64,000 nucleotides of DNA from positions 1 through 64,000 of the forward strand of contig JBHIAE010000011.1 of NCBI GenBank assembly GCA_046758445.1. The letters are read 5' to 3'. Numbering within the stretch: the first letter of the stretch is position 1; the number at the start of each line of letters is the position of its first letter. The DNA is from Candidatus Thorarchaeota archaeon. GTDB lineage: Archaea; Asgardarchaeota; Thorarchaeia; Thorarchaeales; Thorarchaeaceae. Below, one piece after another: positions 873-22,063 of the stretch. Under the pieces are notes generated by a model that was given only the letters and a program-made list of their open reading frames with translations, was not told where the DNA came from and did no database searches. The position numbers and the translations under genes were made by a program.

Positions 873-2015
873 TTGGAGTGGATTGGGCTGTACAGACCCA
901 AACTAGACGTTGCATTCATTGTCGACACGACTGGCTCAATGAAGGACGACATTCGGGCAGTGAAAGATAGCCTCTTCGACATCGTTGAGAAGGTCGTTAC
1001 ACGTACCAAGGGACTGAGTATCAGGTTCGGGATAGTTTCCTATAGGGACCATCCCCCTCAAGACAGGACCTACGTAACGAGAATCTTCGACTTCACAAGT
1101 AGAATAAAGAGCGTTCACAAGGAGATATCAAAGCTCAAGCCTTCAGAAGGTGGGGACACACCAGAGGCCGTGGCTGATGGTCTCCATGATGCGAGGACGC
1201 GACTCTCCTGGGACCCAGACGCATACAAGGTGCTCTTGCTAGTCGGTGACGCTCCCCCGCATGGTCGAGAGTACAACCAACTTGCTGATGACTACTTCCC
1301 TGACGGCTGCCCGAAGGGTCACGATCCAAGGAACGAAGTGCGGGAGCTCAAGAGGACATACGAAGCCACAATGTTCATATTCGTGTGCGGCTGCAATCCC
1401 TTGGTCCGGGACTCCTTCAAGAGCATTGCAGATGCAGTAGAGGGTGGAAGGTACTATTCCTTACAGGAAGCACATGAATTGCCCAATGCAATGCTAGAGA
1501 TTCTTGAGGGCATGAGTGACCTCATTGAAGCCGACCGAAAGGTCCTCTCTTACTACAAGGCAAATGACGGAGCATTTGACATTGGAGAGGCTGCTTCACA
1601 ACTCGATCTTGAGCTTCGAGAGATGAAGACTTCTCTCTCACGTCTCCTTGAACTGGGCAAGATAGCACGATGGCCAAAGGGCCGACCTCTTGAGGCATCT
1701 CAGATGGGGCTGACTGTAGTCACTAGCGAGGTTCCTGATGCTCTAGTTGCAGGTAAGCCATTCAAGTATGACGTGAGAGTCAAGAATCCGAGTTCCGCAG
1801 TGGTAGGAGTCAGAATCATTGTGACGCTGATTACAGAAGATGGTGTCTCTGAGGTTACGAATGAGCGGCACGAGATTGGCCCCGGGTCGGACCAAGTCAT
1901 CGTGATGAATCTTGTGCCTATGTCATTTGAGAAAGGAAAGGCCAGCGTCAGAGTGCAGGTTCTCTATGGGTCTAAGTCACTAGCGACAAAGATCTACAAG
2001 ACACGCCTCTACTGA
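873..2015 (+). CDS. vWA-domain protein with winged-helix and C-terminal Ig-like beta domain
   Basis: Intact MIDAS (VAFIVDTTGSM), GGDTPEAVADGL and LLVGDAPPH (vwkA-type vWA). wHTH-like DIGEAASQLDLELREMKTSLSRLLELGKI. Beta-rich tail (LVAGKPFKYDVRVKNPS). The start may be CTG at 888, after GGAGTGGA. Confidence 0.85.
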   Translation: MEWIGLYRPKLDVAFIVDTTGSMKDDIRAVKDSLFDIVEKVVTRTKGLSIRFGIVSYRDHPPQDRTYVTRIFDFTSRIKSVHKEISKLKPSEGGDTPEAVADGLHDARTRLSWDPDAYKVLLLVGDAPPHGREYNQLADDYFPDGCPKGHDPRNEVRELKRTYEATMFIFVCGCNPLVRDSFKSIADAVEGGRYYSLQEAHELPNAMLEILEGMSDLIEADRKVLSYYKANDGAFDIGEAASQLDLELREMKTSLSRLLELGKIARWPKGRPLEASQMGLTVVTSEVPDALVAGKPFKYDVRVKNPSSAVVGVRIIVTLITEDGVSEVTNERHEIGPGSDQVIVMNLVPMSFEKGKASVRVQVLYGSKSLATKIYKTRLY

Positions 2016-2029
2016 AAGGGGTATCAAGG

Positions 2030-3220
2030 TTGGAACTCGCGGCTATTCGAGGACGCAATCAGAAGGGAATCTCGTATGCACACGCAAGCGTAGACTCTTT
2101 GGCAAATCTTGTTGCTTCGTTGAAATACGGAGGCAGAGTCGTCTATACTGATGTTCGACCGTCTGATAAGGTCCCAGTGGATTCGATTGTTGTTGATTCG
2201 CGACTGTTCGATGAGCTGGATTGCGTTGAAACAGATCTCTTAGAGATAGACGTGATACTCGAGTCCATACCTTTGTGCAGTGAGATTTTACTCGCTATTG
2301 GTTCTATAGATAGATCGGTGAATCGGAAGGTAGTTGAGGCTGTTTCTAAGAGAATTGATGACTTCGAAGAACACCTTCACGGACTAATCTTGACTGCCGG
2401 GCAGACAATCAAGATTCCTGGGCTGAAGCTAAGACTTGTAGTGCAGGACCTACACCCTGTGTCGGAGGCAACTGGCGCAGCAAAGATTTCTTGGAAGCAT
2501 TTGCTCAAGGTCAAGCTCGACATAGAGCGGGAGCAGCAGTCGTGTCACAATTTGTGCGTCTTATTTGATGTGGGAGCCTCATCCAAGAAATCTGATGTTA
2601 CTCATGACGGTGAAATAGAGAGTTTCACACCTTCACGCACTGAGAGAGGCATGACTAGATTAGAAGCAGCGAGGCTTGTCATTGAAGATGTCTTGGCCAA
2701 ATCCAAGGAGTGCGATTCCTCTCTACTTGCGGCCTTGGCTTATGGAGAGAAGGTCTCCGAATTATCCATTCTGGACTCAGAGAGCGAAAGTGAAACTGGC
2801 CATCATCAATTCTCATCCAAATCCTCAGAAGCGCTTGACAATTGGCTTTCAGAGCAATTTGATGAGCACAATATGGAGCCCTCGAATCCAGCTGCTGGGC
2901 TACAAGCTGCATTGAAGGTAGCTTCTGAGCTTGCCGCCACAAACCGATTGCCAACCGTTCTCCTCTTTCTCTCTGGAGGAGCCTATTCAGAAGGCCAGAA
3001 CCCAGTCAGTGTGGTTCGAGAGCTAGCGCGGGCCGAGAATGTGACCATGGTCTGTGTGAGCCTCGGTGAGGACTCTGACATTGATTTGTTGAGAGCAATA
3101 GCCGAAGCAGCCCAGGGGAAGTTTCTCGAGATAAATGACGCTAGAAATGCTGTCCGTGTTCAAGCGGAACTATCAAAATGGGTAAGGAGTGTAGTTATTG
3201 ACAATGGACGAAGAGATTGA
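2030..3220 (+). CDS. CDC48/VAT N-domain-like + degenerate vWA protein
   Basis: N-half resembles the double-psi barrel plus CDC48_2 domain (VPVDSIVVDSRL, LHGLILTAGQTIKIP). vWA with altered MIDAS (VLFDVGASS), SNPAAGL, LFLSGG, LLRAIAEAAQGKF. Confidence 0.7.
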   Translation: MELAAIRGRNQKGISYAHASVDSLANLVASLKYGGRVVYTDVRPSDKVPVDSIVVDSRLFDELDCVETDLLEIDVILESIPLCSEILLAIGSIDRSVNRKVVEAVSKRIDDFEEHLHGLILTAGQTIKIPGLKLRLVVQDLHPVSEATGAAKISWKHLLKVKLDIEREQQSCHNLCVLFDVGASSKKSDVTHDGEIESFTPSRTERGMTRLEAARLVIEDVLAKSKECDSSLLAALAYGEKVSELSILDSESESETGHHQFSSKSSEALDNWLSEQFDEHNMEPSNPAAGLQAALKVASELAATNRLPTVLLFLSGGAYSEGQNPVSVVRELARAENVTMVCVSLGEDSDIDLLRAIAEAAQGKFLEINDARNAVRVQAELSKWVRSVVIDNGRRD

Positions 3221-4466
3221 AACTAGACTCCAAGCGTTACGGAAGAGTGGCGAGATAGTCGGATATCTTTGTTCAAGGCTCCCGGACACTGGTCTTCAAT
3301 CAGGGTGGATTGAGCGAGGATTGACCGCTAAAGGTCTCAAGGGCACACTCAAATCCAAGACAAACCAAGAGAGATATCTCGCTCCAACAGACCAATCCGT
3401 CCGGCTTATGTCTGACAGAGCCATGGATGCACCAAGAAGATATGGCCTGGTTGTCCTAGGAGAGAGAGGGCTGACTAAGAGTAAGTTCTCAGTATTCCTC
3501 AGTGACCAGAAGGGTTCACCTTCAGGTGGGAAGCACGTTGCTGCCTTTTGGTTTCAGGAGTATACTCCACATGACATCGTTCGCTTTGTGATTAGATATG
3601 GTCTAGGAGAGAGTCTTTCAGCCGAGTTTGATGAGCCAAATCTAGATTACGTCGAGCAGCTCAAGACCGACTTCTCCGACAAGAAAGTTCGCGAAGGTAT
3701 CTGCCTGCAGATTCCAAAAGACAAGTTCGACCCTGCGAATTGGGTCAAGAAATCGATGAGAAGAACGGACGACACGGAAGGAGAGGTCCTATTTCGCTCC
3801 GATAAACTTAAGCAGATTCCAGCGTTTGCACTACTCTACAGCAGATGGCTTCAAGACTTGAATCTGTTTCAGAGTATGAAACAAGCAGTATCATGCTGCC
3901 TATTCGTTAGAGAAGAAGAAACTGAGGTGGCAATCTGGGACTTGCCTAGGCGAATTGCCACTTTTGCTGTCTTTTCCTCTGAACCTCTTGAAGAAATCAC
4001 TCGAAAGTATCTTCTCCCTGCATGGCTTGCTAAAGGGCAAAGAATCGAGCCTCCGACGCGTACTAGAGAGGTTGTTGTCGGTCTTCCTGATAGCGACACT
4101 GCGGAGGACGCACCATCACGAGAGTCAGTTAGGACTGAAACCGAAACCACTGTACCAGTAAGAATCGAAGCGTCAGCGATAGGCGATCTAGCTTCTCAAA
4201 TTGAGAGCCTTGAGAAGCGTCTCGATAAGGTGCCCGTAGAACAGCTTCTTGGAAGACTGGAATCAACTGAAGCTCGAGCGCGCAAGTTGGTAGAAGCATT
4301 TAGCGAGCTGCAGAGGACTAGAACGTCTGCCGTGTCTCACGAACCCAGAAACAAGGCGACCCAAGAACATGCACAGAAGAGCCTCAAGGAGATTTTAAAC
4401 CGTCTTGAGGAGCTGGGATCCAAACTGGAGGAGATTGAGAAACGAGCTTCAAGGGTTCTGAAATAG
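3198..4466 (+). CDS. Hypothetical protein with globular N-terminus and C-terminal coiled coil
   Basis: 422 aa ORF overlapping the upstream gene. Heptads in IGDLASQIESLEKRL and LKEILNRLEELGSKLEEIEKR. Confidence 0.75.
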   Translation: MTMDEEIETRLQALRKSGEIVGYLCSRLPDTGLQSGWIERGLTAKGLKGTLKSKTNQERYLAPTDQSVRLMSDRAMDAPRRYGLVVLGERGLTKSKFSVFLSDQKGSPSGGKHVAAFWFQEYTPHDIVRFVIRYGLGESLSAEFDEPNLDYVEQLKTDFSDKKVREGICLQIPKDKFDPANWVKKSMRRTDDTEGEVLFRSDKLKQIPAFALLYSRWLQDLNLFQSMKQAVSCCLFVREEETEVAIWDLPRRIATFAVFSSEPLEEITRKYLLPAWLAKGQRIEPPTRTREVVVGLPDSDTAEDAPSRESVRTETETTVPVRIEASAIGDLASQIESLEKRLDKVPVEQLLGRLESTEARARKLVEAFSELQRTRTSAVSHEPRNKATQEHAQKSLKEILNRLEELGSKLEEIEKRASRVLK

Positions 4467-4484
4467 CATAGGAGTGAATCGGCG

Positions 4485-4802
4485 CTGCCAAAAGAATCGA
4501 GCAAGGACTTCGACACTAGAATGCAATCGATGGAGGATTCTATCAGAGCCATCGAGGAAGTGGGCGAAAGGCTCGACAGCATTCACGACACTCTTTTGTC
4601 TGTCGCCAAAGAACATTCTAAGCCGGTCACAGAATCTTCAGAAGAGAGCGAGGCAGCCAGCTTTCAGATCTTAATCAATCAGATTGACGCTCTCAGGAAA
4701 GTGCTTGAGCTTGTGGAGCTCGAAACTGATCTTCTAGAAGCCCGATTATCTTCCATAGAGAGCCTCCGGACTCGCCTTGGCGATTCTAATCATGTTGCGT
4801 AG
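4485..4802 (+). CDS. Small coiled-coil protein
   Basis: Heptad pattern (IDALRKVLELVELETDLLEARLSSIESL). SD GGAGTGA at 4471-4477 fits a CTG start at 4485; the first ATG is at 4521. Confidence 0.65.
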   Translation: MPKESSKDFDTRMQSMEDSIRAIEEVGERLDSIHDTLLSVAKEHSKPVTESSEESEAASFQILINQIDALRKVLELVELETDLLEARLSSIESLRTRLGDSNHVA

Positions 4803-7437
4803 GTAATAGGCTCTCTATTGCTTCTGCAAGGTGCCCTTCAAATTCGTCTGACGAGAATGAAGATATATTACGAAGATGGATATTGACCCCATCAAGTTGC
4901 TCTTGAAAGTCAATTCCTGCGGTTTCACCCAGTTGAAACAAGTCGATTCTATATCGTTCCTTCGAGGTCAAAGCCTGCAGAAATGGCCTAGCGGCATCAA
5001 TCTCTTCGCGTATATCACTTGTAAAGATCAAGACAAGTGTCGGCATCTGAGGTCCAAAGTCCTCAAGGAACTCCGCAATGGACCGGAAAGCCCCTGACAC
5101 ACTCGATCTCCCACCAACCTCGCCTATGGTGTCAAGCACATAGTACATAATCGAAACCAGGACCTCTTCTGAAGTAAGCTCGCTGGAGAATCGGACACTG
5201 GTCCTAACAGCATCTCCTTTCTGAATTGAGAACTTCACGGGGGATTCAGAGTAGGTCACTATACCTAGTTCTCCGTCACTTCTGTTGGTGGCGAGATTCT
5301 GAACAGAGTGCAAGGCGGCCAATGCGGCTATCTCGATTCTCGATGACTTCCGATCAAGCCTTGCAAGGTATTCCGACAGTTCGGGCGCATCTCTGACGAA
5401 AGGCTGAAGCTTCCTTCTAGTCGACAGAAGAGTCTTCAGCTGCATGTCTCGGATACCCATGGACGCTCCTGTAGAGATGCACAATACGACATTGATCGGT
5501 CTGAACACCTGTGAGGGTTTGAACTCGATAGCTTGAGTAGGTAGTTTGGCCAGCTCTTCAGATTCTAGCGACGGTACTGAATAAGCAAGGGTCATGCTAC
5601 TCCTAGAGTTCCTTCCTCCAAACCAGAGTCTAGTACCTCTCCCTATCAATCGTCCATCTAACATTGTTCTAATCTCATCACTGTGAAGATACACATAGGC
5701 GATGAGCTCATTCATGGAGGTACCACTTTCTGAATCGAGGGCGAAGACCGCTCTCTCGACATCAGTAGTGGTGCCGTCATGCTTGACAAGATCCACAATG
5801 GATGACTCGCAAAGTCCCAATAGCAGGGCATCCTCTTCTGCTATGCCTATTGTTCTGACAGGACAGTTCTCGTCAAGAGCCGCCTTTCCAGCCCACCATT
5901 GTCCAGTGCCAGCTTCCAGAGCCAATATTGACTCATTCTCAATGACCTCAACGGCCCTCATATCAGCTTCAGACATAGCGATAATGCCACTCTCTTGTGA
6001 TACGATTTTCACCCCGAAATGTAGTGCAGATAGCAGTTCTTGCGGGTTTCGGACTTTCAAGCAATCGAGCAAAGCGTAGTTGAATCGGTTCAGGTGCGAG
6101 GGTGAATCAAGAATTGGGCCTTCAGCCCTTGTCGCAGCCCTCACGAGAGTGCTGAACAAATCGGCTCTTCTCTTAGAGATGTTGTCGGTGAAGGACTGTC
6201 TCCATCCCGAAACCCTCAACGAGCCATCTCTCTCCTTCTGTAGTGCAAGCGCGTTTGCAGAGGGGTCACGAGGATCTCTGACAGTCATGACCACATTGTC
6301 GAAGTGGACGACTCCGCCCTCCCGAGACAGCATATAGTCAAATGACTCGATGATTTGCAGTCTACGAGCCGCCAGGATCCGAAGTATCCTTGCGAACTCG
6401 TTCAGAGAAGCCCTGCCTAGAAGTCCCTCAGCAACAACTGTAGAGTTGTTCATGATGAATGGCAGATAGGGTGGCCTTGAAGGAAGTAGTGAGAGAATAT
6501 TACCTCCAAGTATGCGTTGAATATCATCAGCTTCTGCCCCGGCACCCTTACTTAGAAGGAAGCTAAGCACTTCCGATAGGCTGTCTCCGACCTGAGTTTC
6601 TGGGTAAGCGCTGGCGAAGATGAGTCTTGATGACCAAGGGGCATCCTTTGTGACTTTGCGGAGGTATCGGGTTATCAACGCTAGAGAGGATATGGTCGCT
6701 CCAGCAGTGAGAATCCTAGACCCGGGGATGTCTAGGGGCCGTGCGATGAGGTTTCCCCACTCTCTGTGATCCCTGACAGAGAAGATCAGTGTGGGGGTTT
6801 CCAGTCCCGCCTCTTTCATGAACACCAACCATTCTAACAGAGCATCCAATTCGCTTCTAGCATTCAACTCAATGAACACAGGTAGATTGGACTTGAAGTA
6901 CCAAAGGAGGTCGGCTCGATTTGAACCCGTGAGATAGGTTTCTATCTCCGACGCCGCAAGATTGCATGCCCAGCCTGCGTTTGCTCGATGACCATGTCGC
7001 ATCTCCTGCGTTTGATAGAGCCTAGAGCTGAATGGTGGATTTGCGGCCCACTCCTCAATGAGTTTGATGTTTTCTGTCTGCTGAGCAGCAGGGAGCGACG
7101 TGCTTGCTACACTAAGTAGAGGCCTCACCATGAAGGCGTCAACGAACCATTCAGTATCCAAGCTCGCATGCAAGTCTTGGTAGAGTTTGCTCATCATCGG
7201 AGGCTTCTTGAGGTACTCGTAGGCCCGACGGGGTATGAAGCCAAAGGCTTCTGGATACTTAGTGGAGTAGTCATGCAAACGGTCCTCGACCATGCCGTAG
7301 TATTCAACGGCTCTCTGTGGGTCGAACAACATAGTTTGTGAGCCTACCTGAACAGCCCCAAGCTGTAGCATGGCGTCAAGTATGAAGAAGCGCCGAATCT
7401 CGTTTGTCGTAGCGTCTTCGACAACAAGCATAGTCAT
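4786..7437 (-). CDS. Fusion protein: inactive amidohydrolase-like domain + CDC48 N-domain-like + degenerate vWA
   Basis: N-half aligns by eye to 7580-9079 (ILDAMLQLG vs IVDAHHHMG; LIFASAYP vs VLFGTDYS; QRILGGN shared). Middle is CDC48_N/CDC48_2-like (GIIAMSEADM, LDGRLIGRG). C-terminal vWA (VVLCISTGASM, LIFTSD). Confidence 0.75.
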   Translation of the reverse strand: MTMLVVEDATTNEIRRFFILDAMLQLGAVQVGSQTMLFDPQRAVEYYGMVEDRLHDYSTKYPEAFGFIPRRAYEYLKKPPMMSKLYQDLHASLDTEWFVDAFMVRPLLSVASTSLPAAQQTENIKLIEEWAANPPFSSRLYQTQEMRHGHRANAGWACNLAASEIETYLTGSNRADLLWYFKSNLPVFIELNARSELDALLEWLVFMKEAGLETPTLIFSVRDHREWGNLIARPLDIPGSRILTAGATISSLALITRYLRKVTKDAPWSSRLIFASAYPETQVGDSLSEVLSFLLSKGAGAEADDIQRILGGNILSLLPSRPPYLPFIMNNSTVVAEGLLGRASLNEFARILRILAARRLQIIESFDYMLSREGGVVHFDNVVMTVRDPRDPSANALALQKERDGSLRVSGWRQSFTDNISKRRADLFSTLVRAATRAEGPILDSPSHLNRFNYALLDCLKVRNPQELLSALHFGVKIVSQESGIIAMSEADMRAVEVIENESILALEAGTGQWWAGKAALDENCPVRTIGIAEEDALLLGLCESSIVDLVKHDGTTTDVERAVFALDSESGTSMNELIAYVYLHSDEIRTMLDGRLIGRGTRLWFGGRNSRSSMTLAYSVPSLESEELAKLPTQAIEFKPSQVFRPINVVLCISTGASMGIRDMQLKTLLSTRRKLQPFVRDAPELSEYLARLDRKSSRIEIAALAALHSVQNLATNRSDGELGIVTYSESPVKFSIQKGDAVRTSVRFSSELTSEEVLVSIMYYVLDTIGEVGGRSSVSGAFRSIAEFLEDFGPQMPTLVLIFTSDIREEIDAARPFLQALTSKERYRIDLFQLGETAGIDFQEQLDGVNIHLRNISSFSSDEFEGHLAEAIESLLPTQHD

Positions 7438-7579
7438 GTGCTTCCTGGCTCATCCTATTATCTGGTTCCGCACGAGATGTTATATGCATGATGTGGATTT
7501 CCTCTTGTTGGTGGGGTGGACTGGGGAATAGTTTATACCACGCTGGCGCCCATTCTCTGCACCCCGGAGCATAGCCTAG

Positions 7580-9079
7580 ATGTTAGTAGTACGTGCGGTC
7601 GAAGACATACCGAAGAGGGGAATCAAGAAGAACGACAAGTTCCAGCTATACATCGTTGATGCTCATCATCACATGGGACGGGAGAAGAGTCACACAAACA
7701 GTCCTTCAGGTGCCTATGACTTCTACGCGCTTCTTTGGTTTGAGCTACAGCGGATGGCGAAAGAACAGATGGAGAAAGACCTCCTCCTCTTCGAACCTCT
7801 GGAAGTAGTTCCGCCTCAGCTTCCGGCAAAGATGTTTTCAAGCAAAGAGAACTGGGCACGCATGAATCATGGTTGGCTGGTTGACAGAACGATAGCGTTC
7901 CCATTCTCAGATGACTACTCGAAGAGCGATTCACCTGATGTTCCGTCTTTTCGTGTTTCCAATGACAAGATCGCTGGATGGACAACGCGTGCCCCACATT
8001 CTTCGCGTCTAATCGGGTTTGCCAGAGTAGATCCCAAAGATGCGCTGAATGGTGCTCCCAATAGACCCGTGAAGGAAATTGAAAGAGCCGTGAAGGTACT
8101 AGGTCTTAGAGGTCTCAAATTGCACCCCTTGGCTCAGCTGTTTGTAGACGACATTGAAGCTGACTATATGAAAGACATCATGAAGAGAGCAGGCGAGTTA
8201 GGCATTCCTGTGATTATGGACACGAGAAATACTCGAACAGTTCTAAGGATTAGAGAACTAATAGAATCCATGAGAGGAGTCAAGAAGTACAGGAGCTCTT
8301 TGAGTGGGCTGGCTGTCATTCTAGCCCACTGTGGGATGAGTCCTGGAAACGCACGTCTTTATGAAGTCCTAAGAGATCCAGTGTTCTTTGGTGAGACCTC
8401 AACTCTCCACGGAAAGGACATACCGATTCTTTTTAACATGGCCAGTGAACGCATCGAGGCCCCTGGCGTTCGCTGGTCTGAGAAGGTCCTTTTCGGAACC
8501 GATTATAGCTTCCTTTCTGTTCAAGCTGCAGAGCTGATTCTGTATCTGATTTCAAGAAGCTTTGAGGGCAGTCTCACCGATGCACAGAGGATTCTTGGAG
8601 GCAATGCTCTGCTTCTTGCCCAGAGGCCCTTCAAGAGTGGGAATGGGGTAAAACGCAAACCTAAGGGCGTCATCTGTGAAGCATGCAAGCCAGAAGCGAT
8701 GAATGACCTTGAGAATACCATTCTTTCACTTCTTGGCAGGGATTGGGACGTTTCGTCTTTGGACTTCTTAATACCACCTCGCCACACCTGGCCCCGCATA
8801 CGATCTATCGAAGAAGGAGGTTACAACGGAGTTCATTTCAACTCCTATGTGTTGACTCTTCGTCGCAGTGGCAAAGAAACACATGTCTGGATAAGAGAGA
8901 TTCCCGGGGGTTTGATGAGCTGCAGTATTCTAGGGACTAAGGGAAGGTCCACTTTGGACACTGCCGAGTTCGCGTTTCAAAAGATAAGCCCGGAGTTGCG
9001 TGACATTCTGAGGAAGAATACAGTGACTGCAAGAACAACAAACGAGCTAATAGAGGGTGTCCTGCAAATCCTCACTTGA
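7580..9079 (+). CDS. Amidohydrolase family 2 (TIM-barrel metal-dependent hydrolase) with C-terminal extra domain
   Basis: VDAHHHMG, LIGFARVDP, GLRGLKLHP, ILAHCG, VLFGTDY, ILGGNA motifs. TTTATA box at ~7532. Confidence 0.9.
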   Translation: MLVVRAVEDIPKRGIKKNDKFQLYIVDAHHHMGREKSHTNSPSGAYDFYALLWFELQRMAKEQMEKDLLLFEPLEVVPPQLPAKMFSSKENWARMNHGWLVDRTIAFPFSDDYSKSDSPDVPSFRVSNDKIAGWTTRAPHSSRLIGFARVDPKDALNGAPNRPVKEIERAVKVLGLRGLKLHPLAQLFVDDIEADYMKDIMKRAGELGIPVIMDTRNTRTVLRIRELIESMRGVKKYRSSLSGLAVILAHCGMSPGNARLYEVLRDPVFFGETSTLHGKDIPILFNMASERIEAPGVRWSEKVLFGTDYSFLSVQAAELILYLISRSFEGSLTDAQRILGGNALLLAQRPFKSGNGVKRKPKGVICEACKPEAMNDLENTILSLLGRDWDVSSLDFLIPPRHTWPRIRSIEEGGYNGVHFNSYVLTLRRSGKETHVWIREIPGGLMSCSILGTKGRSTLDTAEFAFQKISPELRDILRKNTVTARTTNELIEGVLQILT

Positions 9080-9144
9080 CCCGCACAATTCTTTATAATG
9101 AATCTGGCCGACATTGAAACATCGTACATGCGGAGGTAACAGCC

Positions 9145-10437
9145 ATCACCAAGTCGGTGACACTAGGAATTGAAGACGGCGGAGATCTCAGGGGATATGC
9201 CGTCGTAAATCCGAAGACAGCGAAGATTCTGAACGCAGAACTTGGGTCTATTGTCGTATTCGAAGATCCGCAGTCATCTTTCTGGGGAGCCGCACAGGTT
9301 CGCATCAACAAGGAGGTTCCGCCTGACAAGATATCTGTGGACACACTTGTTCTGGAAGCATCGCTGTTGATGGACGGAGATACAGGAATTGATGTAACTC
9401 TGTACGATGAAGACATGACAGCTCTTGAGTATGTTGAGTTCGGTCTCAAGCCCCTTTCCGAGGATGCGAACACTGATGATTTGGTGACTCGAGCAGCCGA
9501 ACAGGTGAAATCTCTGGAGAAGCTAATTGGAGGACGGCTTGTATATCCTGGTATGTCATTTAACTGGCCCGAACTTGCCGCAAAGGTCGAGATAATGACC
9601 ACTCGACCGTCACTCTCTGGAAAGATGTTTGCCAAGCTTGCATTTGAAGCATTGAGAGAGAAGACAGGCTACCAGTTCAAGACAATTGGCATAGCGACTC
9701 CTTTCAACGCTGTTCTCTGTGTTGATACGAGTGGTTCCATGAAGACGACAGATGTTCCTGTGCAAGACATCGCTCATGCTAGAGAAGGGCTCAAAGACCT
9801 GGCGGGTGACAATCCTGAGGTGCAGGCCTTCCTCGACAGGTTCAAGGAAGGAAAGAACGTAAGTCGGGCTGAAGCCGCCGCGATGGCTGTACTACTATAC
9901 TTAGCTGAGAAAGTCGGAAGAGGTTATGGGGAGAAAGTTGGAGTGATCACCTTCGAGAAGGAGGTGACGGAAATGACTTTCCTCAACTCTGAAACAGGCG
10001 AGGTCCAGCCTTTCGTTGAGTGTACTGGAAGGGAGAAAGCACTAGGCCTGCAGATCATCAGTACGCACGTGGTCGACAAGGTTGAGGAAGGCGGGACTCT
10101 AACTGACATGGGAACCGCATTGACAAAAGCGCACGAGATCATAGAGGCATTTGGGGACCCAGGCAAACCTACAATGCTCATAATGCTGACAGACGGCATG
10201 ACAACATCAGGTCCTCCTCCATTGAAGATTCTAAAAGAACGCTTCACCGATGGAGGAAGGCTTGTCATCTACAGCATAGGACTTGGAGAGCGCAGCGAAA
10301 TTGATGAAGAATTGATGCTTGCTATGGCACAGTATGGCAATGGCACCTATCGGCATGTAGACAATATGCGTGATCTGTTAGAATGGTACGGTAAGCTGGC
10401 AAGTGAGTTCGCCATTGTTATTCGAGGCGCTAGCTGA
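9145..10437 (+). CDS. CDC48/VAT N-domain-like + vWA protein (intact MIDAS)
   Basis: RGYAVVNPKTAKILNAELGSIVVF...DKISVD (double-psi barrel) and LIGGRLVYPG..VEIMTTRP (CDC48_2). vWA motifs VLCVDTSGSM, GTLTDMGTAL, IMLTDG. SD GGAGGT at 9132 points to ATC 9145; GTG 9157 is the alternative. Confidence 0.85.
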   Translation: MTKSVTLGIEDGGDLRGYAVVNPKTAKILNAELGSIVVFEDPQSSFWGAAQVRINKEVPPDKISVDTLVLEASLLMDGDTGIDVTLYDEDMTALEYVEFGLKPLSEDANTDDLVTRAAEQVKSLEKLIGGRLVYPGMSFNWPELAAKVEIMTTRPSLSGKMFAKLAFEALREKTGYQFKTIGIATPFNAVLCVDTSGSMKTTDVPVQDIAHAREGLKDLAGDNPEVQAFLDRFKEGKNVSRAEAAAMAVLLYLAEKVGRGYGEKVGVITFEKEVTEMTFLNSETGEVQPFVECTGREKALGLQIISTHVVDKVEEGGTLTDMGTALTKAHEIIEAFGDPGKPTMLIMLTDGMTTSGPPPLKILKERFTDGGRLVIYSIGLGERSEIDEELMLAMAQYGNGTYRHVDNMRDLLEWYGKLASEFAIVIRGAS

Positions 10438-10445
10438 ACCTGCTA

Positions 10446-11660
10446 CTAATCCGGTTCTAGGGCCTGAAGGAGAGCCTTCAAGGTTTCCAGATCCATCTCC
10501 TGAATCTGTTCCTCTGGTATACCCACCAACATGTCTTCAGTAACTGTCATGAGAACCTGAGCCTTCTCTTCTCCATACTTCTCTGTAAACTCGCCCAAGC
10601 GTTTCTCCTCTTCACTAACAACGACCTCGGCCGCCTTCGCAGCACGCTTTCGCTTGGGCTTCTTGGCCTCTTTTACTGTTGGAGCGGCCTCCATTGTCGA
10701 GGCAATAAGTGCCTCCAACTCTTCGTATGTTAATCCCTTGAGGACATCGTCTGATACGGACTCTCGTACCTCATCGGGTATCTTCTCAATGAGTTCTTGT
10801 CTTGTCGGTGCTCCCTTCTTTCTTCGAACCTTCTTGACCTTCCTGACTTTCACGGCCTTTTTCTTGGGTTTACGCTTTGGCTTCGCAACCTCGGCCGGTA
10901 CTTTCAAGGACCGGACTAGTTCTCTAGCAGTTTCAGGAGTGAGTCTTCTCACGTCTTCTGACGGAAGGGTTTCCCTTAGATCTTCAGGTAACTCACTCAG
11001 GATCTCTTCAACCTCGGCCGATAGCCTTGGGGTCTTTCTAGGAGCTTCCTCTGCTACTGGCGGAGTTGTGACCCTTGCCTCAGCGCCTGCAAGCACAATC
11101 GGAGCTTCTTCAAGCTCGCGTACAAATTCGGTCACGTCTATTTCAATATCAAAGCTCTGTGACCGCCAATTTAGATATCTATCAATCCCATCAGAACTCA
11201 AGTTGATGTGAGCCAAACGATTCCGGATGTTTCTCTCATCGGAATCTGGAAAATTCGCTGCAAGGTCTTCGATGTCCTCTGTCGTGAGTCGCGCCCAAAT
11301 TGGTCCCCTAAGAAGCTTTGAGAGCCCTGCGGCACAATGGGACCTGACCCAGGTATTTGAGTCCTTGAGTCCCTTGAAAAGATCGGGAACAGTTCTTGGT
11401 TGATGGTAGAAGGCAAGTGCCTGTGCACACGCGATTCTGACTGCCTCTTCTTCGTCATTCAAAGCCTTCGCCAGGTCAACCACAATGGAGGGGTCTCCAA
11501 GGTCAATCGATGCAAGAAGTGCTCTTTCTCTCACTACATCCGAGGCATCTGAGAATGCAGAAACAAGTGCCTTTCTAACCTTCTTGTTCTTCTGTGCACG
11601 AATTCCGACCTTCTCGGTTTCGAACTCGAGTAGCAGACGCCTGGTATCGGACAAGGGCAC
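10446..11660 (-). CDS. HEAT-repeat protein with Lys-rich linkers and three repeated C-terminal helical modules
   Basis: PBS/HEAT repeats (DASDVVRERAL, NDEEEAVRIACAQAL, KDSNTWVRSHCAAGL) followed by three ~30 aa repeats. Confidence 0.85.
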   Translation of the reverse strand: MPLSDTRRLLLEFETEKVGIRAQKNKKVRKALVSAFSDASDVVRERALLASIDLGDPSIVVDLAKALNDEEEAVRIACAQALAFYHQPRTVPDLFKGLKDSNTWVRSHCAAGLSKLLRGPIWARLTTEDIEDLAANFPDSDERNIRNRLAHINLSSDGIDRYLNWRSQSFDIEIDVTEFVRELEEAPIVLAGAEARVTTPPVAEEAPRKTPRLSAEVEEILSELPEDLRETLPSEDVRRLTPETARELVRSLKVPAEVAKPKRKPKKKAVKVRKVKKVRRKKGAPTRQELIEKIPDEVRESVSDDVLKGLTYEELEALIASTMEAAPTVKEAKKPKRKRAAKAAEVVVSEEEKRLGEFTEKYGEEKAQVLMTVTEDMLVGIPEEQIQEMDLETLKALLQALEPD

Positions 11661-11866: not shown

Positions 11867-12685
11867 ATGGGTCAGGAAGATGGTTCAGATACACTGCGAG
11901 TCATCGGTTTCGCTCTGGTTCTGTTTCTTATCATTCTCATGAATGAAGTGACATCATATCTGACGGTTTCGATGGATGCTACCACCAGGGGACTGATTGG
12001 GACGGGAGTATTCTTTGGGAATTTCCTGCTGATGTATCTGGCCCTGGTTGTCTTCTTGAGAAGGGAGAACGGCGGCGACGTTACTGGACTGGGCATTCAG
12101 TTCGATCAGAAGACCATCACACACCTTGTGGTGGGAACAATAGCGGGATGTGTCGGTGCCATCGCTGTCTATTCCATTGCGTTGTTTCTTGGCGGAGACC
12201 TTCGTCAGGTTGCAGAGATTAACGCCGAACTCATTGCCACTGAAGTTCTCATAACTGTCCCAGTTGCCCTCTTTGAAGAGCTGAGCTATCGAGGATACCT
12301 GATGACTCGAATGGAGCGGGTGACAGGGCGTAACGTCGCTATCATTGGTAGTTCAATATGGTTCTCTCTTTTACACTTTGGCTGGTGGATCCCTCTTGGA
12401 TCAGTTCCTCTCCATCTCGTGTTGATATTCACCTTCAACTTGTTTCTCGGTGGAGTTGTCTTGAGTTTCGGCTATTACTGGTCTGGGAACCGTTTGTGGG
12501 TGCCCATAGCATTCCATTTCGCATGGAACATGCTCGCATACGTCCTGTTTCCGGTCTTCCCGAGCGAACCTGTTCTAATGCCTGAAGTGTTCCAGATTGA
12601 ATGGGGAATCACGACCATACTTGGATTCATACTCGGACTCTCATTGATATGGCTCCTTCTTCAGGAGTTACAAAAGAAGAAATGA
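11867..12685 (+). CDS. CPBP family intramembrane glutamic endopeptidase (CAAX protease/Abi)
   Basis: EELSYRGY, FSLLH and HFAWN motifs; multiple TM helices. Confidence 0.92.
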   Translation: MGQEDGSDTLRVIGFALVLFLIILMNEVTSYLTVSMDATTRGLIGTGVFFGNFLLMYLALVVFLRRENGGDVTGLGIQFDQKTITHLVVGTIAGCVGAIAVYSIALFLGGDLRQVAEINAELIATEVLITVPVALFEELSYRGYLMTRMERVTGRNVAIIGSSIWFSLLHFGWWIPLGSVPLHLVLIFTFNLFLGGVVLSFGYYWSGNRLWVPIAFHFAWNMLAYVLFPVFPSEPVLMPEVFQIEWGITTILGFILGLSLIWLLLQELQKKK

Positions 12686-12710
12686 AGGGCCGGGGATTTC
12701 CGGCACCTTC
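12684..12710. terminator. Hairpin between convergent genes
   Basis: GAAGG-GCCGG...CCGGC-A-CCTTC inverted repeat between the CPBP and NfeD stop codons. Confidence 0.45.
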
Positions 12711-12718
12711 GAAACACT

Positions 12719-13420
12719 CTATTGCTGATGCACTTGACCGCTGGTCTCACGATCTACTATCATGGTAAGTCCTGATACTGCGATGACAGCTACTCTCTCG
12801 CCCTCACGTATGGGTGGACCACGCGTCTTTGCCCACCATATCTCGGCACCTACCTTCACTTTTCCTGTCGGATTAATGTCGGACAAGGCGATGACCTCAT
12901 GCCCTGTTCCATATGCAGAATATTGGGGCCATTCATCATATCCTCGAAGGAAGACCGCATATAGTGCCATCAAGCCCATCACGGTACCAACCATGATGTA
13001 TACCGTCGTGGTTCTGGACGGGTCGACCCATATCGATATGAGTATTGCAGCGCCGTAGAATGGGAATAGTTTGAGGGACACCTTGGCGTCAATGAAGCCA
13101 CCGTCAACGAAGCTGCCTCCACCCGTGAAAATCGCGAGCATGAGGAAAAGCACGCCAGCTATGACGATGAGCTCAATAGCACCGAATTCGGTGCCGGGTC
13201 TCAAGAATACCTGCATGGCGAACAGAATTAGGACTATAGGCACAACGACCTGAGCCATTGCCTTTCCGCTTGCTGGCTCCACTGCGACGACCATGAGAGT
13301 TAGTACAATAGCTATGAGAATCAAACCAACAAATGGGTCGAAGAAGACATAGCCCACGAGGACACTCATCACTGACATCAGCATCAGTACAACAAAGATC
13401 TTTATCCAAGCATCCATCAC
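12719..13420 (-). CDS. NfeD-like membrane protein (C-terminal OB domain)
   Basis: TM helices, then INPTGKVKVGAEIWWAKT..PIREGERVAVIAVSGLTMIV. Lies downstream of the stomatin gene. Confidence 0.88.
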   Translation of the reverse strand: MMDAWIKIFVVLMLMSVMSVLVGYVFFDPFVGLILIAIVLTLMVVAVEPASGKAMAQVVVPIVLILFAMQVFLRPGTEFGAIELIVIAGVLFLMLAIFTGGGSFVDGGFIDAKVSLKLFPFYGAAILISIWVDPSRTTTVYIMVGTVMGLMALYAVFLRGYDEWPQYSAYGTGHEVIALSDINPTGKVKVGAEIWWAKTRGPPIREGERVAVIAVSGLTMIVDRETSGQVHQQ

Positions 13421-13447
13421 ATCGGCCTCCCCTAGGTCATCCAGAAA

Positions 13448-14281
13448 CTACTCCGGTTTTCCTTTGTCCTTAGGCATCTTCATGCCACCAGTTCCTGCGG
13501 AGAGTGCTGCAGCGGTGCCCGCTACCATGCCGACTTCTGGGATGTTCGTCGGAACCATGATGATCAAGTTAGCGTTCTTCGATATCTCCTGCATTATGTT
13601 CCAAGTTCGCAATACGAAGCCTACGGATGACTCTTCGTACATCCTTGCAGCCTTCAACATGTTCTCAGAAGCCTCAAGCTCAGCTGTTGCCAGAGTGATT
13701 CTTGCTCTACGTTCTCTCTCAGCCTGTGCCTCTCGGCTCATGGCATCTTGTAGGGCCGCAGGAATCACAACATCACGAATCTCAACACTGGTTACTTTCA
13801 CACCCCAGTGTTCGGTCTTCTCGTCTATCAGCTCCTGCAGGTGAGCAGCGATACTGTCTCTCTCAGAAAGCACCTCATCAAGCGTGACCTTGCCGATTGT
13901 TTCACGGAGTGTCGTCTGAGCTGCAAGCTCTACTGCTACTGCATACCGCTCAACGGCAAGTATCGCCTTCTCAGGGTCGATTACCCGGAAGTACATGACA
14001 GCATCTACTACCACAGGCACGTTGTCTTTTGTAAGAGACCTCTCAGTCTTGAAGGCGTAGGTCAGCAGCCTCAGTGAAACCTTCATTGCGATCTTGTCAA
14101 GTATGGGGGTGACCCAGGTAATCCCCGGACCCTTAACACCTCTAAACTTGCCAAGTCGAAGAATGGCAATGCGCTCCCACTCCTTGAGGACCTTTATGCC
14201 GCTGGCAACAAACATCAAGACAAAGAGAAAGAGGAACCCTATCAGGGTCACCCAAGCCCAATATGGATCGATAAATTGCAA
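13448..14281 (-). CDS. SPFH/stomatin (slipin) family protein
   Basis: EWERIAILRLGK, LTKDNVPVVVDAV, AQTTLRETIG, WGVKVTSVEIRDV, EAQAERERRA. Confidence 0.95.
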   Translation of the reverse strand: MQFIDPYWAWVTLIGFLFLFVLMFVASGIKVLKEWERIAILRLGKFRGVKGPGITWVTPILDKIAMKVSLRLLTYAFKTERSLTKDNVPVVVDAVMYFRVIDPEKAILAVERYAVAVELAAQTTLRETIGKVTLDEVLSERDSIAAHLQELIDEKTEHWGVKVTSVEIRDVVIPAALQDAMSREAQAERERRARITLATAELEASENMLKAARMYEESSVGFVLRTWNIMQEISKNANLIIMVPTNIPEVGMVAGTAAALSAGTGGMKMPKDKGKPE

Positions 14282-14445: not shown

Positions 14446-15249
14446 TTACTCCTTCTCGATCTCTTCAGGAGTAAGTTCTCGAGCTTCGACAGATTCCCAA
14501 GGAGTTATGGGCAGCTCGAGATTTGTCTGGCGGATTGCTTCTCCAACTGCAATCACAACTACGGCCAGAATAATCGAGGCCACGAGTCTCTCAACGGGAT
14601 AGACGAAGGTGATTGCCAGCCATATGTCGACAAGGCCCACCGGATCCCAGCCTAGAACGTACACGAAGTGATAAACGCTGACCGCATTACCCACGACATG
14701 ATCTGTGAGAAGCGCGATAAAGCTGAACAGCCATATGCCGAAGGACATCAATGCGATGTTTCTACCTTCCTCAAATGAAGTGGCGTCTTTGAGGATATCA
14801 GTCACTCTTGGAATGAGCAGCAAGATAATGATAACCAAGGTCACAAGATGGAGCCAGATAAACATGAATGCAGGAATTCCTATCGGGCTGGCAATGAATG
14901 CCAGAACTGCAACAAGAAACAGTACGAAGAGAAGACGTGGCTTTCCAGTTCTTAGGGCTCCTGCAGCGAAAGCTCCAGCTGTGGGTGCCAACGTCGGCAC
15001 TAGTGGTCCAAGGATTCCTCCTGGGTTGAAGACATTGACTCCAAGGAATGAACCTATGAACACAGAGATTGGCCCATAGAAGGGACCGAGAAGGAATCCC
15101 ACAATAGGTGCGGATACCATGCCCCAAGTGAGAAATCCCCCTCCCATTCCCAACACGGAATAGGGGATCATCGAGAGAACCAGATGGAACGCTGCAAAGA
15201 TGCCCACGAGAGCCCACGGATACGCTTTCGATTTGGTGAAACTTGGCAT
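14446..15249 (-). CDS. Integral membrane protein, ECF S-component-like
   Basis: Multi-TM protein with N-terminal GIFAAFHLVLSMIP and APIVGFLLGPFYGPISVFIGSFLG typical of S components. SD AGGAGG upstream. Confidence 0.65.
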   Translation of the reverse strand: MPSFTKSKAYPWALVGIFAAFHLVLSMIPYSVLGMGGGFLTWGMVSAPIVGFLLGPFYGPISVFIGSFLGVNVFNPGGILGPLVPTLAPTAGAFAAGALRTGKPRLLFVLFLVAVLAFIASPIGIPAFMFIWLHLVTLVIIILLLIPRVTDILKDATSFEEGRNIALMSFGIWLFSFIALLTDHVVGNAVSVYHFVYVLGWDPVGLVDIWLAITFVYPVERLVASIILAVVVIAVGEAIRQTNLELPITPWESVEARELTPEEIEKE

Positions 15250-15270
15250 GACAGGTCTCCTCCTATGAAG

Positions 15271-15310
15271 TGTAGTTTAGTAAACTACATAGGCAGTTGT
15301 GTACACTACA
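15271..15310. promoter_or_regulatory. Tandem palindromic operator
   Basis: Perfect TGTAGTTTA-G-TAAACTACA (15271-15289) plus a 14/19 copy GGCAGTTGTGTACACTACA (15292-15310), 21 bp period, between divergent genes. Confidence 0.7.
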
Positions 15311-15354
15311 CCGACGTACCAAACCGCTATTTGAATATGTTGGAGACCCCCCCG

Positions 15355-16686
15355 ATGGATAAACGAGAGCATCTATGGCCGTACGTCCTATTCCTGCCCG
15401 AGAGCTCTGAGCGAAGGCTCGACTTCATCAGAACCGTTCTGGCATCGAAGATCGCTCCCAGCGTTCTTTCTAGTTTCGACCAAGGAGGCAAGGTTCTTCA
15501 GCGCGACCTTGTCAAGCAACTCCCTCACTCCAATAAGAGTATTCTCGCCTACTTGAGAACTCTCAAGGAATTCGCTCTTGTGAAGACGGGATCAGAAGTG
15601 GAGGGAGGGAAGCGTGTTGTCTACCATGAATTGTCGAGGAGTGGCTGGAGCCTCGCTCGCTTCTTCTCTGAAGGTCTGCCGTCAGACCTCGGGGAACTTA
15701 CCGAGTATCTACTGGAAGACTACCTCACCAATCTTGTGTCCTTGTATCGAGATCTGGGACTAGACGAATCCTTGATTTTCGAAGTCTTCACACGCGCCCG
15801 AGCGAAGGAGATACTCCAAGGCTCGACCTCATACGACCGGCCTGAGTTTGTCCTTTTTGGCGCTTCAGCCTTCTTTACTGAGGTTGAATGTAGAAAGCTA
15901 CCTCCACCAGGCGGTGAGGTGGGATGCAAGGTTCCTGAACGATACTCTGGTGGACCAACAATCAGACTTGCCCTTGCACTTGCGGATCAGAAACACAAGG
16001 TTGCTTTCGTGTCTGCTGTGGGGAATGATCAAGACGGATGGAACGTAATCACTTCTCTCGTGAGTCAGAAAGTCGACGTATCACACTTCGTGGTCGAGGA
16101 TGACAAGCAGACCAACAAGACGATCTTGATTGGAGACGAGAAGGGAAAACGGACTCTCGTGGGAATTGGTGATCTCTCTGCATTATCGATTACTTCTCCC
16201 TCTCAAGTCCCATGGGAAACGCTGGCAGAGGCAAGAGTAGTATACCTTGGAGAAGTCTTCGTCGAGGTTGCAGTTTCAATTGCTGCGTATGCCAGAGCGC
16301 GCAATATCCCCATAGTCTACAGGTGTTCACCTCACTACTGGCGAAGGGGTATTGATGAGCTAGAGCCTATTCTGAAACAAGTCGACATCCTAGTTGCTTC
16401 AAGTAGAGAGTGGAAGGAGGCGAAGGGTGTGCTCGGTCCCAAACCTCTCTCCAAGTTAGCAGAGTCAACCAACGCAGCCATTGTGTTGAAGCACTCCCAG
16501 GATGCCTACAAAATCTATAAGAATGCCAACTCTAGACCAACTGAACTTGTTTCTGAATCCTATACTGATGATATCACTGGATGGTTGATGGCTGGCATCG
16601 TGCAGGCTATTGGACATCGGGAAGACACAGTGAAGGCAGTAGATAGAGGAATAGTGCTAGAGAATTCTATGCTCGCCGGTGGCTAG
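15355..16686 (+). CDS. wHTH + PfkB/ribokinase-like domain protein (probable transcription regulator)
   Basis: HTH: LQRDLVKQLPHSNKSILAYLRTLKEFALVK. PfkB N-signature YSGGPTIRLALALA..AVGNDQDG. The C-terminal DTxGAGD motif is missing. ATG 15355 follows GGAG; the track start 15184 overlaps the divergent gene. Confidence 0.8.
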   Translation: MDKREHLWPYVLFLPESSERRLDFIRTVLASKIAPSVLSSFDQGGKVLQRDLVKQLPHSNKSILAYLRTLKEFALVKTGSEVEGGKRVVYHELSRSGWSLARFFSEGLPSDLGELTEYLLEDYLTNLVSLYRDLGLDESLIFEVFTRARAKEILQGSTSYDRPEFVLFGASAFFTEVECRKLPPPGGEVGCKVPERYSGGPTIRLALALADQKHKVAFVSAVGNDQDGWNVITSLVSQKVDVSHFVVEDDKQTNKTILIGDEKGKRTLVGIGDLSALSITSPSQVPWETLAEARVVYLGEVFVEVAVSIAAYARARNIPIVYRCSPHYWRRGIDELEPILKQVDILVASSREWKEAKGVLGPKPLSKLAESTNAAIVLKHSQDAYKIYKNANSRPTELVSESYTDDITGWLMAGIVQAIGHREDTVKAVDRGIVLENSMLAGG

Positions 16687-21324: not shown

Positions 21325-21334
21325 CTGACAGCAC

Positions 21335-22063
21335 CTAGAAGGATGAGAGCGACTCAAGCAATCGAGTTATCGCAACATTGTCCGTGATTACACCACGTGA
21401 CAGAGTGAGCTGTGCTATGAGGGTTGATCGGGACTCACCGAATGCTTGCACCAGTTCATATGTTAGAGCGCCGCCTCCATACTCTCCATCATCGAAGATC
21501 ACAGCAATTCCCGCCTTCTTCAGAGTTTGAACGAACGCCTTTAGCTGCTCTGCTGAGCCGGCAAGGTACCTCTTCCCTATCACTCCTGTCTTCTTCTTCT
21601 CCAGTGGTTCAAACATGTCACTCCATCTAAGAACGATAAGAAACTGTGGTTCTTCTCCGGCTGTCTTCTCCATCTCCCATTCAAGCATCTTGATGGTCCG
21701 GTCACACATTGCCCTTGACTCTTCATCATCTGCGGCCTTGATCAAAGAAGGGGCCTTGTCCGATTCCGCCATTATTCCCTCGACAGTAATGTTCAATGGA
21801 TCTCCTGGACTGAGAGCAGTCGGAAGGCAAATGAACCCAGTGGGAGTTCCGCGTATGTGGACATCACTAGCTTCGAAGTCCTTCGCGCTCAGTCCTCTCT
21901 CGAAAGGCTCAAGGGATGTGCGTAGTCTTGATACTCTCTGGAGTAGTCTTTCCAAGACATCCTTTGCCTTCTCTAGGTCCTTTGAAAGTTCTGAGCTCAA
22001 CGGCGACTCACTCTTCAGTTTCAAGAGTAGACTTACCCTTTCCCGAGCACTAGAGAGGGTCAT
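21335..22063 (-). CDS. Hypothetical protein, possibly degenerate N-formylglutamate amidohydrolase fold with N-terminal helical extension
   Basis: FICLPTA / LIVLRWS / EYGGGALT / IAQLTLSR occupy the positions of the FGase PH, DxH, YxGG and QxE motifs, but the metal ligands are lost. Confidence 0.5.
   Translation of the reverse strand: MTLSSARERVSLLLKLKSESPLSSELSKDLEKAKDVLERLLQRVSRLRTSLEPFERGLSAKDFEASDVHIRGTPTGFICLPTALSPGDPLNITVEGIMAESDKAPSLIKAADDEESRAMCDRTIKMLEWEMEKTAGEEPQFLIVLRWSDMFEPLEKKKTGVIGKRYLAGSAEQLKAFVQTLKKAGIAVIFDDGEYGGGALTYELVQAFGESRSTLIAQLTLSRGVITDNVAITRLLESLSSF

Follow-up and report, generated by a model that had tools for sequence, protein, structure and literature searches.

A Cdc48N-vWA protein family of Asgard archaea, its conserved gene partners, and a possible role as an adaptor in reversible amide-bond modification

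What does a protein do if it carries the N-domain of the AAA ATPase Cdc48 but has a von Willebrand factor A (vWA) domain where the ATPase ring would be? The question is raised by a gene cluster near the start of a 64,000-nucleotide stretch of contig JBHIAE010000011.1 from a Candidatus Thorarchaeota archaeon (hereafter, the window), which encodes three such proteins. The initial annotation proposed a hetero-oligomer of one active and two inactive paralogs, working with an AAA ATPase encoded elsewhere. By comparing gene neighborhoods at 17 loci from 10 Asgard families, we found that the conserved unit is instead a triad, seen in 8 of the sampled families: an Amidohydro_2-like hydrolase (7580-9079), the Cdc48N-vWA protein with an intact metal site (9157-10437), and a GCS2-type ligase (17887-21357; see Table 1). 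Our preferred reading, which we hold tentatively, is that this Cdc48N-vWA protein serves as an adaptor in a pathway of reversible modification through amide bonds, and we call it the adaptor below.

Just two genes recurred among the neighbors of the adaptor at the 17 loci. The Amidohydro_2-like gene was present at 11 loci from 8 families and was directly upstream of the adaptor in families f1, f3, f15, and f16. The large ligase gene was present at 10 loci from the same 8 families; its ortholog in the window lies 7.4 kb downstream of the adaptor. In f1, f3, f11, f13, f15, f16, f19, and f21 and on an Odin-labelled contig, the three genes were direct neighbors or lay no more than about 7 kb apart. 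In two f22 genomes, the ligase and the hydrolase were adjacent or within 1.5 kb, and in the closed f22 genome (G189), the adaptor was about 300 kb from both of them. We also checked co-occurrence in a sample of five genomes (related genomes are not independent): all three genes were present in two of them, and the adaptor, the ligase, and a full-length hydrolase were all absent from the other three, which are 93-99% complete.

The three-paralog cluster that the initial annotation took as the unit did not recur in this way and is an elaboration of the Thorarchaeota. A closed Thorarchaeota genome (loci L004 and L053) retains the genes for the vWA-Ig protein, the 880-aa counterpart of the window's 883-aa protein, the hydrolase, the adaptor, the HEAT protein, and the Rce1, NfeD, and Band7 proteins, but it lacks 2030-3220 and the coiled-coil gene, so the set of three paralogs is not an invariant unit. 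Most Asgard lineages outside of the Thorarchaeota have one copy of the Cdc48N-vWA family, and some have two to four.

The fold of the adaptor could be assigned only by combining structure prediction with family profiles. Neither Pfam nor NCBIfam gave a CDC48_N match in the window's proteins (Pfam sees the vWA domain alone in the paralogs), and a search of PDB sequences with the single adaptor protein returned vWA relatives only. Across an alignment of 55 family members (A1), 8 proteins matched Pfam's CDC48_N (best E = 3.8e-7) and 10 matched the related barrel Molydop_binding. An AlphaFold2 (AF2) model of the adaptor based on this alignment had a mean predicted local distance difference test score (pLDDT) of 91.5 and a predicted template modelling (TM) score of 0.82. 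In Foldseek searches, residues 1-178 of the model matched the isolated N-domains of p97, Cdc48A, and SPATA5 across both subdomains (target-normalised TM 0.70-0.74, root-mean-square deviation 3.6-4.1 Å), and a profile of the N-domain only (A3) matched yeast Cdc48 (E = 5.5e-5). Together, these results confirm the layout that had been read from the letters: a Cdc48-type N-domain followed directly by a vWA domain, without an AAA ring. The double-psi barrel and beta-clam of the N-domain are shared with Cdc48/p97/VAT and NSF, but in Cdc48/p97/VAT the tandem AAA+ D1/D2 ring occupies the place of the adaptor's vWA domain. Conversely, the vWA adaptors Rpn10, TFIIH p44/Ssl1, the Sec23/24 trunk, and ArnB do not have a Cdc48N module, and the adaptor does not have the ubiquitin-interacting motif, zinc-finger, or Sec23-type accessory domains of Rpn10-type vWA proteins.

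The three genes that had been grouped by eye (2030-3220, the C-terminal half of 4786-7437, and 9157-10437) are true paralogs. By BLASTP, the adaptor is similar to 2030-3220 over nearly its full length (residues 44-382, E = 7e-12) and to residues 514-871 of the 883-aa protein (E = 2e-18). A six-frame search of the whole genome (an assembly of 3.25 Mb, 92.7% complete) found these three copies only. The helix motifs that the initial annotation had listed (TRLEAA, SRAEAA, and SRIEIA) are all present, and so is the pattern of one active and two degenerate metal ion-dependent adhesion sites (MIDAS). The full motif (DTSGS...T...TDG) is in the adaptor alone; 2030-3220 has DVGAS and SGG, and 4786-7437 has STGAS and TSD, and neither of these matches the motif. 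In alignment A1, the MIDAS residues of the adaptor (D190, S192, S194, T316, and D346) are invariant or nearly so, and R237, which is the arginine of the (S/T)RxExA helix, is at least 90% conserved. We also examined eight diverse orthologs of the 883-aa protein, taken from separate 50%-identity clusters. The MIDAS motif is lost in all eight, and the arginine is mostly retained. Because the loss is stable across this set, the degenerate site of this class, judged by sequence conservation, is not a product of decay. The view that the Cdc48N-vWA protein is an adaptor, not an enzyme, is likewise supported.

The hydrolase next to the adaptor appears to be intact. Its AF2 model (pLDDT 88.9) has a TIM barrel and a C-terminal alpha/beta domain, and its best Foldseek matches are IDCase, LigW, and barrels of the gamma-resorcylate decarboxylase type (E = 6e-9, about 15% identity). 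The Amidohydro_2 site (HxH on strand 1, further histidine ligands, and an aspartate on strand 8) corresponds to H29, H31, H182, H250, and D308. These residues and K180, all candidates for metal binding or catalysis, do not vary in any of the 18 sequences compared, which come from 9 Asgard families.

The 883-aa protein, in turn, is a fusion of inactive copies of the adjacent hydrolase and adaptor genes. Its N-terminal half and the hydrolase are collinear paralogs (BLASTP E = 1e-7), but the HxH motif is replaced (FILDAMLQLG). Among the eight orthologs, H182, H250, and D308 are lost in every case, and the H29/H31 pair is kept in just one; the structural positions D27, D102, P108, W299, and N342 are retained. 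This fusion is a clean natural "Rosetta stone" and a clear archaeal example of a pseudoenzyme scaffold. By the Rosetta-stone argument, the joining of a dead hydrolase to a dead adaptor implies that the active hydrolase and the adaptor act as a physical pair, and we infer that they bind one another. A complex prediction for the two proteins scored 0.58 (best of three controls, 0.00), which lends weak support. Of 80 solved complexes, 58 passed the mark for this score, as did 2 of 110 mismatched pairs; with scores of 0.60 or less, only 7 of the 80 solved complexes passed, and so did both of the passing mismatches. The prediction runs agreed in at least 83% of contacts, with partner pLDDT of at least 79.

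The ligase scores above Pfam's cutoff for GCS2 (27.8 bits versus 21), and four of its orthologs do so as well. The N-terminal ~480 residues are conserved across the orthologs (E = 1e-60 to 1e-134), and there is a weak match to YbdK structures (1r8g, E = 0.013).

How widespread is the adaptor's family? An exhaustive, profile-free search of 1.84 billion representative proteins returned 161 matches; 83 of these had E values of 1e-10 or better, and most of them aligned over the full length. The named members come from Thor-, Odin/Asgardarchaeia-, Sigyn-, and Promethearchaeota and from one metagenome-assembled genome (MAG) labelled Korarchaeota. Across 400 Asgard species genomes, the family was found in 261. 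It is nearly universal in the window's own family (79 of 85 genomes) and in f11, f13, f15, f16, f21, f22, and f23, and it is absent from f8 (0 of 31) and from several other families. The ESM Atlas has a single cluster with the whole fold (TM 0.85, 117 members, 96% Archaea). Across the Thorarchaeota, the adaptor is 78-97% identical, versus 53-72% for the neighboring hydrolase, which points to heavy constraint, as expected of an interaction hub. Public sources describe family members only as "VWA domain-containing" or "hypothetical," and we did not find the family or the triad described in the literature on Asgard archaea with DEPDC5, Iml1, GATOR1, GCS2, or vWA. The folds are known; the combination, the partners, and the Asgard-wide conservation are new. 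This defines a widespread Asgard protein family, strongly conserved within the Thorarchaeota, whose partners (the ligase and the hydrolase) are directly testable.

Some family members depart from the adaptor's plain layout. The Loki-type members (P0134, P0137, P0132, and P0138, of f22/f21 type; for example, L042:9413-11551 and L041:8108-10282) have 700-830 residues. By eye, one or two extra barrel-like segments with an N-domain-like sequence pattern precede the Cdc48N-vWA core, and there are long proline-rich tandem repeats (PPVTQPVYKPA, PGQMPGVPQPPT). We considered whether the N-terminal extension is a relative of the hydrolase or of the N-terminal half of the 883-aa protein and rejected this, as comparison showed no relation. 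In the closed genome G189, an actin-family gene (Pfam Actin, E = 2e-44; L042:6637-7839, minus strand) lies about 1.5 kb from a Loki-type member, which may be coincidental. The second family copies in f15, f16, and f22 have housekeeping genes around them that share no theme (ADH, metallo-beta-lactamase, HAD, radical SAM, and actin). P0156 (586 aa) has a tail after the vWA domain with three zinc-ribbon-like units (CxxC...CxxC); the tail matches Pfam Lar_restr_allev and Rubicon-homology families, both under the curated cut-offs. At L054:6970-11290, a 1004-aa form with an N-terminal Cdc48N-vWA core and the 429-aa P0135 are in tandem, near an Amidohydro_1/3 gene in place of the Amidohydro_2-like gene. 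The sole member seen outside of the Asgard labels is P0128 (36% identity), encoded at 1972-3234 of the 3.4-kb contig from the Korarchaeota-labelled MAG (L008). It adjoins a DUF885 gene and could reflect a binning error or gene transfer.

Another variant bears on what the adaptor might do. In a sister subfamily (P0150 and P0160, which are in separate 50%-identity clusters; P0160 is labelled Sigynarchaeota), the protein ends in a ubiquitin-family domain, without a terminal Gly-Gly, after a disordered linker. Both genes adjoin an operon that encodes ubiquitin, ThiF/E1, UQ_con/E2, and JAB proteins, on two differently arranged contigs. We did not find UQ_con (E2) in the window's source genome, at its 92.7% completeness; this is a weak negative, as the control genomes were uninformative for UQ_con. 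There is also a parallel to pupylation. PafA, which ligates Pup, and the depupylase Dop are members of the carboxylate-amine ligase superfamily that also includes GCS2 (PMC2588565). Like the triad, the pupylation system (PafA, Dop, and Mpa) has an amide-bond ligase, an enzyme that cleaves amides, and a recognition protein that is not catalytic. The eraser of the triad would be a TIM-barrel amidohydrolase, whereas that of pupylation is a paralog of PafA. Also unlike pupylation, the nine triad loci yielded no gene for a Pup-like tag, and no gene for an AAA unfoldase or a proteasome was seen linked to the triad.

We propose, with the caution stated above, a module of three genes across the Asgard archaea: a GCS2/YbdK-type ATP-dependent carboxylate-amine ligase, an Amidohydro_2-type metal hydrolase, and a non-catalytic Cdc48N-vWA adaptor or reader. 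The ligase would write, and the hydrolase would erase, a mark that is amide-linked to a protein or peptide, perhaps an extra amino acid or a small group. Docked on the hydrolase, the adaptor would choose or display the target: its N-domain may be a dock for a protein or a ubiquitin-like (UBL) domain, by analogy with Cdc48/Ufd1, and the metal in its MIDAS may bind an acidic or carboxylate ligand, by analogy with integrin I-domains. In the Thorarchaeota, a second hydrolase-adaptor pair would have arisen by duplication and been fused to give the 883-aa subunit, which lost both active sites and probably serves as a scaffold or regulator. The Thorarchaeota would also have added the third, degenerate adaptor paralog, the vWA-Ig protein, two putative coiled-coil proteins, and the HEAT protein. 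If the adaptor does direct reversible amide modification, it would represent a third prokaryotic logic for protein tagging, beside the ubiquitin-like and Pup systems, and in the lineage closest to eukaryotes.

Several observations weigh against this proposal. Small molecules are, to our knowledge, the substrates of the YbdK-type GCS2 and Amidohydro_2 enzymes that have been characterised, and the nearest solved relatives of the hydrolase barrel are Amidohydro_2 decarboxylases and hydratases. No small tag gene was apparent near the triad: there was no conserved open reading frame (ORF) of 25-130 aa at nine triad loci, apart from antisense shadows. The adaptor is unlinked from the two enzymes in the Lokiarchaeia-like f22 genomes, the link to a ubiquitin operon belongs to a paralogous subfamily rather than to the window's ortholog, the co-occurrence sample is small, and the predicted hydrolase-adaptor complex is a weak one. 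Three of these points (the small-molecule substrates, the lack of a tag gene, and the persistence of ligase-hydrolase adjacency where the adaptor gene is elsewhere) would fit an alternative in which the two enzymes synthesise and break down an amide metabolite, of the gamma-glutamyl type or another, and the vWA protein is a regulatory or assembly factor, with no modification of proteins. We consider this unlikely. It would leave unexplained why a dead hydrolase is fused to a dead adaptor, why the adaptor is so highly conserved, why the ligase has a long tail that is not catalytic, and why the sister subfamily has a UBL fusion and a link to ubiquitin operons. The hetero-oligomer of the initial annotation, in which one active and two inactive paralogs would be an adaptor for Cdc48/VAT, PAN, or MoxR encoded elsewhere, seems to us more doubtful still. 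It would account for the clustering of three paralogs and for their active/degenerate pattern. The genome also has two canonical Cdc48/VAT genes, on other contigs, and vWA proteins are well established as partners of AAA ATPases. However, one of the three paralogs is missing from the closed Thorarchaeota genome, most Asgard lineages outside of the Thorarchaeota have a single copy, and the dead adaptor is fused to a hydrolase paralog, not to an ATPase. Furthermore, no AAA or MoxR gene was conserved in the clustering of neighbors at the 17 loci (only some of these neighbors were scanned against Pfam); the genes that recur near the family are the amidohydrolase and the ligase.

The initial annotation also stated that no described system has this architecture, which was too strong. 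The N-terminal module of DEPDC5/Iml1, the NTD-SABA part of this GATOR1/SEACIT subunit, has a double-psi barrel, a second N-subdomain, and a vWA-like alpha/beta domain in the same order as the adaptor. Indeed, the best whole-chain Foldseek matches of the adaptor were human DEPDC5 in structures of GATOR1 and KICSTOR-GATOR1 (E = 2.4e-13 to 2.5e-11), followed by yeast Sea1/Iml1 (1e-10) and then by p97 N-D1 (7e-10), and positions 14-100 of the family profile matched residues 37-123 of the DEPDC5 N-terminal domain (NTD) in register (E = 1.4e-4). The results of a VIA search were taken up by vWA domains and included no alignment ranges for DEPDC5. The adaptor might be an archaeal counterpart or ancestor of NTD-SABA that docks longin-type GTPase-activating proteins (GAPs) and Rag/Arf-like GTPases, with its enzyme neighbors being a lineage-specific input or unrelated. 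The near confinement of the family to Asgard archaea would fit this, as would two published observations: Sea1 holds Npr2 via its SABA domain (PMC9646525), and most Thorarchaeota MAGs were reported to have NPRL2-like longin proteins, with no mention of a DEPDC5 counterpart (bioRxiv 10.1101/2020.10.19.343400). Against it, query-normalised TM scores to DEPDC5 and Sea1 were just 0.34-0.42, and the N-domain-only profile scored Cdc48 slightly better than DEPDC5 (E = 5.5e-5 versus 4.9e-4). Pfam's IML1 (PF12257) matched nothing in the whole genome up to E = 10, and there was no match in the scans of the window's proteins. The adaptor ends after its vWA domain and does not have the SHEN, DEP, and C-terminal (CTD) domains of DEPDC5/Iml1; unlike DEPDC5/Iml1, it keeps a full MIDAS, which suits a classical ligand-binding vWA domain. 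The genes that accompany it encode a ligase and a hydrolase instead of longin GAP subunits, no longin or GTPase gene is linked to it, and the sole match to Pfam's NPR2 in the genome is weak (E = 0.2) and on another contig. A role as a DEPDC5-like scaffold is improbable, in our view.

Ancestry is a related question. The N-module of DEPDC5 may have descended from the Asgard Cdc48N-vWA family; we regard this as unproven but worth keeping in view. Extended further, the family would be the prokaryotic forerunner of NTD-SABA and perhaps of the similar N-module in a KICSTOR chain, and GATOR1 would have two archaeal roots (the NPRL2-like longins and this scaffold). Originally, the scaffold would have linked a ligase/hydrolase pair that handles amino acids to a platform on which proteins dock, and amino-acid sensing upstream of the Rag GTPases might have begun in this way. 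We regard this extended scenario as rather unlikely, although not far-fetched. If the likeness to DEPDC5 does reflect descent, the archaeal prehistory of GATOR1 and of nutrient signaling would gain the third subunit that it has so far lacked.

Table 1. Features of the cluster and of the genes downstream of it (positions in the window). The ligase gene is outside the region 873-11660 that was noted initially.
Feature	Positions	Strand	Size	Description
vWA protein	873-2015	+	380 aa	DxTxS MIDAS-like loop and C-terminal Ig-like domain; heads the plus-strand operon
Paralog 1 (accessory)	2030-3220	+	396 aa	Cdc48N-like domain and vWA domain with degenerate MIDAS (DVGAS, LSGG)
Putative coiled-coil protein (accessory)	3198-4466	+	422 aa	Sub-threshold matches to helical families
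Small protein	4521-4802	+	93 aa	Helical, judging by weak matches
Double pseudo-protein	4786-7437	-	883 aa	N-terminal half, dead Amidohydro_2-like barrel; C-terminal half, Cdc48N-like/vWA with dead MIDAS (STGAS, FTSD)
Divergent intergenic region	7438-7579		142 bp	Between the 883-aa gene and the 7580/9157 pair (ORF coordinates)
Amidohydro_2-like metal hydrolase	7580-9079	+	499 aa	TIM barrel and C-terminal alpha/beta domain; Pfam Amidohydro_2, 5.4e-13
Core adaptor	9157-10437	+	426 aa	Double-psi barrel (~1-90), beta-clam (~91-178), vWA with complete MIDAS (180-426)
HEAT-repeat protein	10446-11660	-	404 aa	Convergent with the adaptor gene; Pfam HEAT_2, 1.1e-13
Rce1-like protein	11867-12685	+	272 aa	Downstream of the cluster
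GCS2/YbdK-type carboxylate-amine ligase	17887-21357	-	1156 aa	~480-aa catalytic part, then a long tail

Within the cluster, the four plus-strand genes at 873-4802 are separated by tiny gaps or overlap, and the last one and the convergent 883-aa gene share 17 bp at their 3' ends. The adaptor gene begins 77 bp 3' of the hydrolase gene; GTG at 9157 is a likelier start for it than 9145. The divergent intergenic region is presumed to be a shared promoter region for the 883-aa gene and the hydrolase/adaptor pair. As for the other members that the initial annotation listed, the HEAT protein, the amidohydrolase pair, and a fourth vWA protein are borne out. The vWA domain of the latter is clear (Pfam VWA_4, 3.3e-12, and VWA, 3.5e-9), and its Ig-like tail has a weak basis (Transglut_C, E = 0.004). 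The two supposed coiled-coil proteins have only sub-threshold matches to helical families; for 3198-4466, these Pfam and NCBIfam matches are to CorA and SMC-related families. Among the loci we compared, orthologs of the vWA-Ig gene and of the HEAT gene were found only in the Thorarchaeota (L004, L005, and L053), and it is uncertain if the HEAT protein is a member of the system. The coiled-coil gene has an ortholog in L005 (and none in L004 or L053), and L005 also has a 102-aa gene at the position equivalent to that of the small protein.

Beyond the cluster (11867-14281), there is an Rce1-like CAAX protease gene and, after it, an NfeD/Band_7 (stomatin-type) pair. This block is syntenic with the cluster in all of the Thorarchaeota loci that we examined but not in other Asgard families. 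Upstream of the ligase, a 242-aa gene without a Pfam match (21335-22063, minus strand) overlaps the start of the ligase gene by 23 bp; it has no counterpart at the non-Thorarchaeota triad loci sampled. The ligase region is flanked by a PfkB-family kinase-like gene with an N-terminal extension of about 250 aa (15184-16686) and by a gene for a bacterial-type phosphoglucose isomerase (SIS; 22121-23200), and the synteny of these two genes is confined to the Thorarchaeota.

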